Shown: in pieces, positions 43,575-49,428 of the stretch
Layout: the number at the start of each line of letters is the position of its first letter
How positions within the stretch are numbered: position 1 is the stretch's first letter
Origin: Psilocybe cubensis
Lineage: Eukaryota
Assembly (NCBI GenBank): GCA_017499595.2
Contig: CM039001.1
Coordinates: 3,100,001-3,164,000, forward strand
Direction: 5' to 3'
Length of the DNA stretch: 64,000 bases
Program-made: the position numbers and the translations under genes
The notes under the pieces: model-generated
Seen by the model: the letters and a program-made list of their open reading frames with translations, nothing else
What the model was told of the DNA's origin: nothing
Databases searched by the model: none

Positions 43575-44320
43575 ATGGCTCGTACTAAATGCTTCGCGCA
43601 CAAGTCCACTAGTGGTATGTATTCCTTTCTACTGCATCGCAATCTTTTTTGTTATATGATATGTTAATTCTGATCTTTCCACCTACATAGGCAAGAAGCC
43701 CAGGTCGAGCGGATCAGAGCCAATGTCGAGTGGATCAGAACCCAAGTCGAGTGAATCACCACCACCCAAGGTCAAAAAACCGATTGTCGAGTCTACTGGC
43801 CGTCGGACAAATTCCGATTCTCGTTGGGCGCGTAAAACAGTGAGTAGAGTTTTTTTTTTTCACGATGCCGACACATTTTGACGGCGACTGTCTGCAAGGT
43901 TAACCAAAATCGTCCTGATCCATCAAAGGTCGTGACAGCCAGAAAAATGGCCAACAAGCGTCGTTTCCGTCCCGGGACCGTCGCCCTTCGCGAGATACGG
44001 CAATATATGAACTCCACCGAACTGTTGATACGGAAACTACCTTTCCAACGACTGGTCCGGGAAATCGCAACTCATTTCAAGGTAGGAGTTTTTTCTTAAA
44101 AAAATGCTCTTCCTTCCTGATACAACGTGTCCAGCCCGATCTTCGTTTCACGCCCACCGCGTTACTTGCCCTTCAAGAGGCTACAGAAGACTACATCGTC
44201 AGTGTATTTGAGGACACAAATATGGCCGCCATTCATGCCAAACGGGTGACGATAATGAAAAGGGACTTGTTTCTTGCTCGCAGAATCCGAGGGGACTTGA
44301 CAAGGTTTGGGATGGCATGA
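43575..44320 (+). CDS. Divergent histone H3 variant with an extended N-terminal tail (~185 aa)
   Basis: Exons 43575-43614, 43691-43839, 43899-44081 and 44135-44320 give [18 protein letters not shown]...[109 protein letters not shown] at 43513. Confidence 0.92.
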
Positions 44321-44687
44321 GTAAAATAAAATGTGTTGTAGTGCATCAGAGGGTTGGGGAAATTATTGCAACAAAATGTATTGGCATATAATATACACCG
44401 ACCCAAAAAAATACAGTGTGAGAATGAGAATGAATGACAGAATCGTGTATATTGGTCTAAAAAATCACCCTAAACTAGCATCTGAGTATCGAAACAGCCC
44501 TGCTAATGAAAACCCATGAAGTGGTTGCACAATGAAAAAGGAAGGTCAGTGAGCGTGTTTAGTACAAATGAGGGAAAAAGAACACAAATAATGAAGATGT
44601 AACAATGATAGTCCCCGCAATCATGTGGAACCATGGCAAGGCTGGCACGAATAAGAAGCCTAGGCCCACCATGATTGCTGGAAATCG

Positions 44688-47600
44688 TCATGAATAAAAA
44701 CCGTTTGAGTCGTTTGATGCTACTGATGCATTTGGAGAAGTGCTTTGCTCGTCTGCATCGACGGGTTTTGAGAACCCGTTTTCCTCTGCTTTAATGGCTT
44801 TCGAAGCTGTTGATGTAGAGGGACTACATGTCTGCAAAGAGTCATCGGTATGCTCCAGGTTGATGGGTGGCGTGGATCGCTTTTGTTGCATGCCGGACTC
44901 CCGGTATTTGGTCTTGGTCTCTGGTGTGCTGGGCTTCGGCGTCGAATCTAAAGAAATATTAACAGATATAAAACCGTTGCATGAGCTGTTATAAGAAGAA
45001 TGTTGCATACCATCTGTTAACGCAGATACGTTAGGACTTGACGACATATTTGGCAGATAATAAGCTAACCTTGATCCATTTCTATACTCGTCCTGGTCTC
45101 AAAGGAACTGCGAGCGGTGTCAAAAGATGTTGATCTCGAATTCTGACCCGATGTTGATATATTAGAAGACCTGCTCCTGGGCCTATCTGGGACCATGAAC
45201 GAGGAAGATAGCGGAGACGGTGGGACATTTGAGAGATTGTGACTTGTCCCAGAAGATGATGCTAATGCAAGAGCGGCAGCATTGTCCTCTAAGGCACTGG
45301 TCGATCGTCGCGTTGATGATGAACTAGGCGAGGGGCGTTCTTTGACTGGTACATGAAGTTTTTCTGCGACATTCCTGGCTTGGGCTTCAAGGCCACTCGA
45401 CACCGAGCGCACTCCATCCGGTCGGAGGTCTGCCCACATCTGTAGAGCCTTAATTGAACCCCATTCAATGATCTTGTTGTTTAGCCACAATAATGACACA
45501 GGCTTTGTTAGGAAATCATTGCAACCAGCTGCTAGTGCAGCTACACGATCGGTCTGGAGAGACGATGCAGTAAGAGCCACGATGATAACGGATGACCGAT
45601 ACGGGGAATTGAAGGATCGCGTCTCTGAGGTTGATGAAGCTCCAGAGGAAATTGAAGTATTTCCTTCATCTGTCATGGTTGGCGATAATGGGGGGTATCC
45701 TGACGCGGCGTTCAACTTTTCCAAACGCCTGATCTCTTTTGTCGCCTGAATGCCATCCATGATTGGCATTTGAATATCCATCTGACGACATTCGTTACAA
45801 TGAGTAGAGATAACAGATACAGCATAGAAATGACAAACTCACCAAAATCAAATGGAACCCTCCTGTGCGCCACTTTTGCACTGCTTCTTGCCCATTACTA
45901 GCTAAATCATATTTGATCCTTTTCCGCCGCATGAAGGTCGACAGAATCGTTTGATTGATGGGGTTATCTATGTTGACACCGTAAGAGAGGAGGAAGAGAG
46001 AGAACCAAAGAATATTCTTACCGTCAACAATGAGTACACTAATTGGAGGAACAACATTATCAGAACCCATTACTTTCCCCTTTTGCTTAGCCCCTGCCAC
46101 AGGAGTCCCGTCCTTGGTTTCACTGCGTTTGGCTGTTCGCCGTATAGATGGTGTGCCCTCGGTAGGCGCACTACCAGCTGATGCAAGTTTACGGATCTCA
46201 TCGCTGGCTTTTCGAGGCACAGGAGAAAGGATACTAGCTGCAAAAGAAGGTTGTTCGCGCTGATCCTCGGTTGACCTGTTAGGCGAAGGGTCCATAGTCG
46301 AACTACTAGCCACTGGTTTGGCTTCCTCCTGACCAGCCAACTGATGTGCTTCGTGCAAAGACGAGAAAGACACATTGTCATCCTTTTTCCCGTCCGAAGA
46401 AACCCGAGATACTGATACTCTGCGAGGACCAGGGACGACAAGCTGCCCTTTGTCTCGTTCCATGGAATGAGTTACTGGGTGTTTGCTTCCTGATTTACTT
46501 CGAGGGTGGAAATAAATTCCTGCGGTCTGTCCATCAGGACTTTGGATTACAAGGCCTGATGACGGAGAAGTTCCCAGTTTCTGTGCCGCGACGGAGAAGT
46601 ATTCAACATTATCGGGCAAAGCAAGAGGTGAGGGTGGTAGAATGGACGGCCCGTTTCCAACGCTATCACTGGATCGCGCAGAACGATCTGAGTTGTTACG
46701 TGCACTTCCAGCCGGCCTGCTCAAGTTTTTCACCAATGGAGACTGGGCTTGAGAAGAGGGATTGCTATCTGGATTGGGCCCAATATTGCTGTGCTCACTG
46801 AGAGCAGGAGAGAAGAAAGATCCCGATGCGTTGGGTGTACCAGGGCTCATTGGAGACGTCGCGATTGGCATGAACAATGGATCGACAATGGGTTTAGTGA
46901 CAGCGGTGTGTAGTGCAGTCAAAAAGCGACGAGGCCCCGCAGGTTTGGGTATGATCATGACTTCGGGTAGGGGTGTAGAGGTAACAGCATACGAATGCAT
47001 GATAGATTGCATGACATCTCTCACCAACTTGTAGTTCGATAAGCTCGTAAAGTGCATTATCACCACTGGCGGTGACCGCATAAAGTTGCTCTGAAAGGTT
47101 GCGAGACGAGCCATGGCTGGAGAGGATTTAGGGCGATGGTTGGATGATAACGACGGCCGCTTTCTAGAGTTGTTGACCATAGTTGGCTGGTTTTCGAATC
47201 GAAGAGCCTGCAGGCGCTCTTTCAGAATATCGATATCGTCATCAATGAAGATGAAGTTTGGAGTCGCAGGTACAGGGGCACTGGTATCAGGCTTAATTTG
47301 AAGATTTGGGATGGTATCTCCTGCATATGTAGGCAGAAGTGGACTCTGAGAAGTTAGAAGTGATTCTTCTTGCCCGGATGGAGTTGCATCCGTTAGTCCA
47401 TCCACTTGGCCGTCTGGCGACACATGCGTGACATCCATACCCCATGCAGTCAAATAGCTCGTCAAATGATGTGCGAAGGAACCTTTTGCGCTGGCATAAA
47501 GCTTCACTTTCCTACCCTTCAAAGTCTCTCCGAATGAAGAAAGCTGCTCTAGAGTAGGTTCTGGGTTAACACCATCGTCAAACGGCTGAAGGGGAATCGG

Positions 47601-48988
47601 CTGTGCTGGCACAGGAGCTCGATTGAGAACCATTTCGAGATCACAAGTACGACCACTAGTAAACGCTTCTGGGGGAGGAAGGTCCGCAGTTAACTTGCCA
47701 TCGATCTGCTTGAGAATACGTCGCAAAAGAAGAGTAGAGAAGGTCGGCTGTACTCTTGTCTCAGTGGTTACAACATCATGTGGACGATCTGTATCTTGAT
47801 GCGTGTCCAAAGGAGCGTACTTGTGTGAGATTCGGAGCTTGACCTTGACGGGACCATTGGATTCCAGAGGCGCGGCGCTGAGCATGTCGTCTACAGGAGG
47901 ACTTTCCGTAGGGCCGTCGTGGTCTGCCAATGAGTTTGATACAGCACTGACGAGAAGTCCAATCTCAATAGAATCCCCTCGCTCTGCAGTGTTTAAAACT
48001 TGACGAACAACCTATAACAGAAAAGACATAATGAGAGGTTTAATATGATAGTAGCAAGCCAACAATCTGTACCTACATGAGACAGTGCGAATGATATCCC
48101 GCTTTCGTTTCCGGAAACATAAACATGCTTCAAGCCTACATCTCCGTGATAGAGGACCAGATCAACTCCTGCATGAGCTGCAGCACCACTCAAGGCATCG
48201 CCTACGCACTGCAGCATTTCTCCAATGTCAAACTCGTTGTCGGTATCAACTTTTGTGATAGTTGGGATGGGGGAAGGGGGATTTTCTTGACCCATAGGAC
48301 GAGAAGTGCTGGCACTCGCTTGTTCACACAAGGCAGACATATTTGCGGATATGTAATTAATGTTTTTCATCGCTGTGAACATGGCGGACATAGATGAAGT
48401 CGGGACTGACAGTGCGCATGCTGAGAACTGCTCTTTCGCTGGATCCAAAACCTGTGGGGGGGATATCTGAAGCATGGTCTGGATAACCAACTGGATCGAA
48501 TCCGCCAATTCTACAGAGACTTCCCGGACTTGATCATCTTGTGACGAGCGTGAAAGGGACGATGTTTTGTAAGAGTCAGATCGACCTGGCCGGTGTGGGT
48601 TCTGAAGCTGACTGAGCTGCGAAGGCAGGGGCATGGAGAGGGCTCGAGATATGCCAGGCGCTGGGACGTCAGCAAATGACCTCATAGGTACTTGAGCGGT
48701 GGGCGACGTCGGTGGAGGCGCGACTTTCCAAGTAGGACTAGTAGTATTCCCTGCTACATCCTCTGCTTCTGAATCGTGCTGTTCATCGTCTGAGGAATTG
48801 GTTATTGGCGGCAGCGTAGAGCGCGACTGCTGCAGACCCTCCATGACAGTGTTTCGATGGCCTTCTGATGGAGCGTACGATACACCGAATTTGCTTCTTG
48901 CCGGAAGCTCAAGAGAAACGCCTTCTTGGATGAGGATTTCGCCTTCTGCTGTCATGCGCACGGCTGGGAGTGTGTGGGGGCCCGCCAT
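44688..48988 (-). CDS. SSK1: Fungal response regulator, Ssk1/Mcs4 type
   Basis: Receiver domain VPPISVLIVD|DNPINQ...GGFHLIL|MDIQMP...IVALTAS...GCNDFLTKPV...IIEWG. N-terminal region FDIGEMLQCVGDALSG...VDLVLYHGD and PKPAGPRR. Confidence 0.9.
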
Positions 48989-49428
48989 GACTTGCCTTGC
49001 GCGAGAACAACCAAGATGTGTGAAACCAGGCTATAAAAGCCCAAATTCGTGGGCCCAGCTGTGCGTTGAGACGCGACAGAAGAGTAAATAGATAGACGTG
49101 ACTCCAAGCTATGCAGTCTGTATGTGAAAAGGAGGGTGTACAGAGGGTTATAAGCGATGGAGGAGGTTCAATCACAGACTGATGTCAAGGACGACAAGAG
49201 GAGTATAGGTCGAGGAGGGGCTCCATTTCAAACCGCAACAAACACAACTATTCATCTTGCTCATTATTTTTTCAACTGATTCATTTACTCGCAATTTATT
49301 TCAATATATACACAATGACCCATAGTCACAAAGTACTTGCGTGCAGACGCAGAAAAGGTAAAACTATCGACAGGTAGAAGAAAAGTTTTGAGCTATGCCG
49401 CGACGAACACTGTCTCATCATAACCCCA

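Follow-up and report, generated by a model that had tools for sequence, protein, structure and literature searches.

Fungi are usually credited with one type of histone H3 plus a centromeric H3 (CenH3, CENP-A or Cse4). Among the other known types of H3, H3.3 is distinguished from H3.1 by just a few residues, is ultra-conserved and contains neither a tail insertion nor a C-terminal extension, and the identity of the H3.3 variant may be read by a chaperone via residues 87-90, at the start of helix 2. The patch that spans loop 1 and helix 2 also distinguishes H3.3 and CENP-A in other organisms. The CENH3 of Arabidopsis begins with MARTK as well, so that an H3-like N-terminus is no bar to the assignment of a protein to CenH3.

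According to the respective publications, CENP-A is robustly conserved across basidiomycetes (PMC7794384), the H3 family of Cryptococcus consists of two canonical H3 genes and CSE4 (bioRxiv 2026.05.19.726417), human CENP-A is about 62% identical to H3 (PMC2120219), and a loop 1 extension of at least two residues is 'a highly conserved feature ... among all CENP-A homologs' (PMC5710141); according to a 2026 preprint, the high-entropy parts of CENH3 are the tail at the N-terminus, the first loop and the C-terminal region. Given the conservation of CENP-A in basidiomycetes, Psilocybe should have one. Our literature searches yielded no paper that identifies or describes a CenH3 or any long-tailed H3 of an agaric; the supplementary tables of three surveys, which may name agaric CENP-A, lay outside these searches. 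Here we describe a gene of Psilocybe cubensis that we interpret, tentatively and with a probability of about 0.42, as the copy in this species of a fast-evolving, long-tailed H3 paralogue of related agarics with a CenH3/CENP-A/Cse4-type function, which is, narrowly, the most likely of the readings considered.

The gene is located in a 64-kb stretch of P. cubensis DNA (hereinafter, the window), and is complete (Table 1), with a pattern that is far beyond chance. The four exons with canonical splice sites, the absence of stops, the TATA box and the length of about 185 aa that had been reported in the original prediction are all present in the sequence, and the 185-aa translation corresponds to the NCBI protein 'Histone H3 [Psilocybe cubensis]' (P0005; 100% identity, from the match of the exon 4 peptide); the gene is already part of the public annotation, under this generic name only. 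Intron 2 has two in-frame acceptors, of which the AG at 43897-98 yields the 185-aa protein and the AG at 43927-28 a protein of 175 aa; upstream of the latter acceptor, there is a CTGAT motif that resembles the branch sites of introns 1 and 3. The T>C difference between strains at 43919 changes no amino acid in the 185-aa model and leaves a CTGAY branch site in the 175-aa model, and because it fits both models, it cannot discriminate between the two acceptors. A tblastn search of the 64-kb window detected no second H3-like gene.

Table 1. Features of the H3-family gene of P. cubensis and its surroundings (positions in the window)
Feature	Position	Strand	Remarks
Four-exon H3-family gene, stop-free	43575-44320	+	All three introns GT-AG; read from sequence
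TATA-like box TATATAAA	43513-43520	+	55 nt 5' of the ATG; read from sequence
Exon 1	43575-43614	+	ATG at 43575; 13 codons and first base of G14; H3-like N-terminus with K4, K9 and S10; tblastn of P0005
Intron 1, 76 nt	43615-43690	+	GTATGT...CTGAT...TAG
Exon 2	43691-43839	+	Codes for the inserted Ser/Pro/Lys-rich tail; no Pfam family matched
21-nt unit x3.0, inside exon 2	43697-43758	+	Codes for 21 residues; 82% matches, score 82
Intron 2, 185-aa public model	43840-43898	+	Donor GTGAGT; ends at 43928 with the downstream acceptor
30-nt segment	43899-43928	+	Coding (10 residues) in the 185-aa model, intronic in the 175-aa model; CTGAT at 43915-43919
Exon 3 core	43929-44081	+	End of tail, helix N, helix 1, start of loop 1 (..REIATHFK); PF00125 match
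Intron 3, 53 nt, phase 0	44082-44134	+	GTAGGA..CAG; splits K79 / residue 80
Exon 4	44135-44317, then TGA 44318-44320	+	Rest of loop 1, helix 2, helix 3, C-tail DLTRFGMA; PF00125 match
AATAAA	44325-44330	+	5 nt past the stop codon; read from sequence

The downstream neighbor is a large gene on the minus strand (44398-49030) that converges on the H3 gene and encodes a response-regulator receiver domain (PF00072, 38.8 bits, in the ORF at 45068-45838). Contigs from two sequencing runs of a single study (X4 and X5), which we guess to be derived from RNA, begin at 44398 and 44414, that is, some 80-95 nt past the stop codon of the H3 gene and over the 3' end of the neighbor, and the closeness of these starts to the stop codon indicates that the two 3' ends are tightly packed. 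The H3 gene itself is covered by none of the contigs from these two runs.

By profile, predicted fold and structural matches alike, the gene product belongs to the histone H3 family. The core histone domain (Pfam PF00125, with a curated cut-off of 26.4 bits) was recognized both in exon 3 (51.4 bits) and in exon 4 (68.7 bits). A search against solved structures retrieved 176 chains at E<=1e-10, the top match scoring 148.8 bits over query residues 82-178. In the AlphaFold2 model, for which the input alignment contained 22 rows, the helices 90-105, 112-123, 131-160, 166-176 and 179-183 correspond to helix N, the three-helix fold and a short helix in the C-terminal extension (mean pLDDT 64.9 overall and 73-85 across the blocks of residues 111-180), and residues 1-89 are devoid of secondary structure.

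As the reference for substitutions, we used the 137-aa canonical agaric H3 of Pluteus cervinus (P0462). Compared to this protein, the P. cubensis variant retains K4, K9, S10, K14 and K79 and carries the substitutions Q5C, T6F, R8H, K56N, K122R and Q85T/S86P/S87T, all of which, retentions and replacements alike, had been listed in the original prediction; the accompanying claim that K56 acetylation is impossible holds as well because residue 56 is an asparagine. Further differences from canonical H3 include Q76T, V89L, M90L, Q120M, P121K, A125F and L130I. The fold core consists of 93 residues, exactly as in canonical H3, which implies that loop 1 is not lengthened, and Q68 (in LPFQRL) and F84 (in DLRF) are retained, so that these observations, too, had been correct. 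Over the fold, 72 of the 93 residues (77%) are identical between the two proteins, leaving 21 differences, and helix 1 is nearly unchanged, with 2 of its 14 positions different (76 and 77, at the end adjoining loop 1). F41 (RFRPG) and S102 (IVSVF) are the same as in agaric canonical H3, and all 35 columns that are invariant across the H3 relatives in the 22-sequence alignment are kept in the P. cubensis protein. The divergence is mainly concentrated in five places. Besides the tail, these are residues 53-56, the segment 76-90 that comprises loop 1 with the first part of helix 2, positions 120-130 in helix 3, and an extension of hydrophobic character at the C-terminus, where eight residues (DLTRFGMA) follow the RG dipeptide compared to three in the canonical protein, that is, five are extra.

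The tail is longer than the canonical one by 44 aa in the 185-aa model and by 34 aa in the 175-aa model, and the 21-nt tandem repeat within it suggests growth by tandem duplication. Neither the K27 (ARKS) nor the K36 (GVKKPH) context is present in the tail, and the displaced look-alikes KVKKP, WARKT and TARKM that had been pointed out before are seen there instead. Thus, in spite of the shared core length, the near-identical helix 1, F41 and S102, and the ARTK start with K4, K9, S10 and K14, the protein is not a canonical, replication-type H3, as judged by the repeat-containing tail insertion, the missing K27 and K36 contexts, K56N, the C-terminal extension, and the length of 175 or 185 aa vs 135 aa. 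Furthermore, canonical H3 is nearly invariant (89 of the 93 fold residues are identical between Pluteus and Kwoniella, over a far greater distance than that between congeners), whereas the P. cubensis gene evolves fast.

The closest named relative is a 173-aa protein of Psilocybe cyanescens that is annotated as hypothetical (PPQ81095.1; P0007), and additional relatives come from Gymnopilus junonius (P0046, partial) and Hypholoma sublateritium (P0114, a mis-spliced model); in all four proteins, H3 position 120 is occupied by M. The two Psilocybe proteins, which are the only H3-family members from this genus among the matches listed, share Q76T, V89L, M90L, Q120M and L130I as well as an aromatic side chain at 125 and GDL.R[FY] as the motif of the C-terminus. 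Because these shared states are derived compared to canonical H3, a common origin of the two Psilocybe genes appears likely; Q120 and L130 are present in 38 of the 38 named basidiomycete H3 proteins of the canonical type that were chosen from the search tables, with partial and duplicated models left out. The folds of the two Psilocybe proteins are identical in 73 of 93 positions (78%), and that of P. cyanescens is closer to canonical agaric H3 (80 of 93, or 86%, with 14 differences vs 21 in P. cubensis). The P. cyanescens protein is distinguished by a loop 1 that is one residue longer and by the retention of K56, P121 and K122, and its long tail is unalignable with that of P. cubensis: in a BLASTP comparison, the alignment is confined to roughly the first 15 residues and the fold, and the tails show scattered identities with a 10-residue gap.

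Long-tailed H3 proteins with hydrophobic C-ends were also found in Tephrocybe rancida (P0299), in Dendrothele bispora (P0268) and in the JGI set (P0386, with the C-tail GDDMRFGRA). Such C-ends are thus seen in these three proteins, in both Psilocybe species and in Gymnopilus but not in Hypholoma, where the protein ends with ETRK; those of the relatives include RYM, VVL, QW and DYLG. A cluster of 45 ENA, JGI and Logan sequences (P0052, 168 aa), which is likewise long-tailed with a hydrophobic C-end, starts with MARLKQTARK; its tail carries an insertion of 20 aa, its loop 1 exceeds that of H3 by two residues, and M120, F125 and a 12-residue C-terminal extension are present. Among the relatives seen, it is the most similar to classical CenH3. 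The core lengths of the P. cubensis, P. cyanescens and P0052 proteins are 93, 94 and 95 residues, respectively, which translates into loop 1 changes of +0, +1 and +2. The long-tailed relatives show 76-89% identity to canonical H3 and 68-85% among themselves. A tree of 34 H3-like folds, with no validated fungal CenH3 among the rows and a bootstrap that had not settled, does not unite the long-tailed relatives (0 of the 29 inner branches starred); its use here is limited to branch lengths and the pairing of the two Psilocybe proteins (support 86/78).

All 8000 of the 8000 scored candidates of a full-length protein search passed, and the 120 matches listed after P0005 were almost all longer H3-family models (243-323 aa), so this search was uninformative. 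In this set (P0125-P0242), numerous proteins from animals and plants, some 270-320 aa in length, bear the name 'histone H3-like centromeric protein CSE4' and score about twice as high as a single H3; the sequence of P0125 consists of two H3 copies in tandem. These proteins look like fusion models of tandem H3 genes rather than CenH3, and the automatic names are misleading. A profile search with the family fold returned, among the 120 matches listed, only partial duplications and canonical basidiomycete H3, and no additional member of the family. A 170-aa protein of Gymnopilus dilepis (P0408) was rejected as a relative because its model is that of a canonical H3 in which about 33 residues are duplicated internally, probably an artefact of assembly or annotation. 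The HMMER search against 1.84 billion representatives produced 17,334 matches at E<=1e-3, and among the 23 that were read of the 150 listed, only P0007, P0299, P0268 and P0386 resembled the relatives described above. In the ESM Atlas, the nearest clusters are generic H3, and a cluster automatically named 'CSE4' was set aside given that it is mostly chordate, which makes the name unreliable.

A metagenome scan with P0386 found a relative encoded in 565 of 586 stretches, of which 79 loci were kept. Judged from the match table only, these look like ordinary H3 genes, with intron-free spans and 61-66% identity across residues 1-154 or slightly beyond; the exceptions are L002, L005, L036 and L043, with 52-60% identity and matches reaching residues 166-202. 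The contig of P0386 itself (30,979 bases) is absent from the metagenome match table. Mycena floridula (P0100 and P0512) has an agaric H3 variant of another kind, which is encoded by several gene copies: a 138-aa H3 with a rewritten K27 region (..RKHISLTGVRNTDPVRAGPGVKRPH..) and a canonical fold and C-terminus.

The centromeric assignment of the P. cubensis gene is suggested by where the proteins diverge. The tails of two congeneric species are unrelated, as is typical of CenH3, the length of loop 1 varies among the relatives, and the differences from canonical H3 fall in the tail, at loop 1 and the start of helix 2, and in helix 3 and the C-terminus. The loss of the K27 and K36 contexts, the variable and hydrophobic C-terminal regions, and the solitary, intron-bearing gene are likewise shared with CenH3. 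The C-terminus ..GDLTRFGMA contains F, M and A, although a contact with CENP-C is only putative. In contrast, the P. cubensis protein differs from CenH3 in lacking the loop 1 extension of at least two residues, the core being as long as that of canonical H3 (+1 in P. cyanescens and +2 in P0052), in the retention of Q68 and F84, the loss of which is a criterion already applied in the original prediction, and in the H3-like first 14 residues. The identity of its fold to canonical agaric H3 amounts to 77% (86% in P. cyanescens) compared to about 62% for human CENP-A, the best 60 of the 176 solved-structure matches are all named H3 and none CENP-A, and the relatives, each nearer to canonical H3 than to the others, are not united by the tree. 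Because of the loop 1 and Q68/F84 features, we do not file the gene as a proven CenH3. The earlier judgment that the protein does not look like CenH3 is therefore only partly upheld: the features on which it was based are valid, and the loop 1 rule, as worded in PMC5710141, backs the doubt, but CenH3 hallmarks, namely the unalignable tail, variable loop 1 and hydrophobic C-terminus, are present as well.

Somewhat less probable, but a serious contender, is the possibility that the gene encodes a non-centromeric H3 variant specific to the agaric lineage that arose from a canonical-type H3 gene, a conventional CenH3 being encoded elsewhere in the genome. Such a variant would form specialized nucleosomes, perhaps in meiosis, in spores or in a particular chromatin domain, without the K27 and K36 contexts or K56 acetylation; residues 85-90 would be recognized by a chaperone of its own, and the new C-terminal tail would be the binding site of a reader. 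The view taken in the original prediction is largely the same; of its parts, the intact and strongly divergent gene and the impossibility of K56 acetylation stand, whereas the doubt about CenH3 on which it also relied is not secured. The very H3-like fold in both Psilocybe species, the near-identical helix 1, the unextended loop 1 with Q68 and F84 in place, the first 14 residues with K4, K9, S10 and K14, and the canonical F41 and S102 are all compatible with this interpretation. So is the distribution of long tails: the Tephrocybe and Dendrothele proteins keep the canonical Q120 and L130 and are placed by the tree among the canonical H3 of basidiomycetes, a position that suggests that such proteins arose from canonical H3 more than once. 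The resemblance to H3.3-type variants is limited to the 87-90 patch, where both Psilocybe proteins share V89L and M90L, because H3.3-type variants are without the tail insertion and the C-terminal extension of the P. cubensis protein. To our knowledge, long unalignable tails, loop 1 indels and hydrophobic C-terminal extensions are rare among non-centromeric H3 variants, and this speaks against a non-centromeric role. Nor did a second CenH3 candidate emerge among the listed matches of the protein searches, although these were so dominated by canonical and fused H3 that one could hardly have been noticed. In favor of such a role, the loop 1 rule as phrased in PMC5710141 points the same way, and Agaricomycetes are said to possess between 14 and 40 histone genes, some of them in developmentally regulated histone orthogroups (PMC10282164). 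It is conceivable, and only slightly less probable than a CenH3-type function, that the agarics of the Psilocybe, Gymnopilus and Hypholoma group possess, in addition to a conventional CenH3, another H3 variant that evolves fast, with a long, tandem-duplicating tail, an altered 85-90 patch and a hydrophobic C-terminal tail, which would be an undescribed class of fungal H3.

Variation among strains bears on a further explanation, namely that the constraint on this paralogue is relaxed in P. cubensis and the gene drifts, with an open reading frame but little or no function. The entire gene is also represented in contigs of two other strains (X2 and X3). Among the three strains, including that of the window, there are nine coding differences in the 185-aa model, five non-synonymous and four synonymous, and the resulting pN/pS of 0.40 (P=0.15), or 0.53 (P=0.30) in the 175-aa model, is not distinguishable from neutrality with three strains. 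The window strain has S12 (43611), where both other strains have the canonical G12, and V103 (44204), where X3 alone has the canonical L103, so that the allele of the sequenced strain looks more derived. The tree branch of P. cubensis is about four times as long as that of P. cyanescens (1.11 vs 0.25), and P0005 alone departs from the consensus in 5 of the 25 nearly invariant columns of the 22-sequence alignment (Q55M, K56N, Q85T, L100I and P121K), which together indicate accelerated evolution in P. cubensis. Although these observations, together with the larger number of differences per base in the coding region (9/558) than in the flanks and introns (4/743), are what drift would produce, drift is improbable because none of the three strains has a stop, frameshift or indel, all three introns keep GT-AG, 35 fold columns are still invariant, the signals resembling a promoter and a poly(A) site are intact, and uniform neutral decay would not yield a fold that is 78% identical next to a tail that is unalignable. 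The latter pattern implies that the fold is constrained, and a fresh pseudogene is, judging from this comparison, unlikely.

The features of the protein allow us to propose a tentative mechanism that would apply to a centromeric histone, our preferred interpretation, and to a non-centromeric variant alike. The variant is predicted to pair with H4 and to replace H3 in a small set of nucleosomes. Its loading would occur outside replication-coupled assembly, which is linked to K56 acetylation, and would depend on a chaperone that is dedicated to the variant and recognizes its 76-90 patch. The C-terminal tail ..RFGMA could serve as a hydrophobic docking peg for a reader of the CENP-C type, and the N-terminal tail, relieved of the usual K27 and K36 contexts, would evolve rapidly via indels and tandem duplication. 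The molecular logic would thus be the same in both cases, and the difference would lie in the location, at centromeres or in other, perhaps stage-limited, chromatin.

The practical weight of these observations is modest because they concern one gene family in one group of agarics, seen so far as sequences, but either a CenH3-type protein or a lineage-specific variant would be moderately unusual. Either way, caution is due with the automatic annotation 'Histone H3' and with the use of loop 1 length alone to call or exclude CenH3. If the gene encodes the CenH3 of Psilocybe, the textbook diagnostics, namely the loop 1 extension, the loss of Q68 and low identity to H3, are broken in this lineage, and a centromeric histone can retain an H3-like N-terminus with K4, K9 and S10. 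If it does not, the gene represents a rapidly evolving and so far undescribed H3 variant of mushrooms, with what are likely to be loading and reading surfaces of its own.
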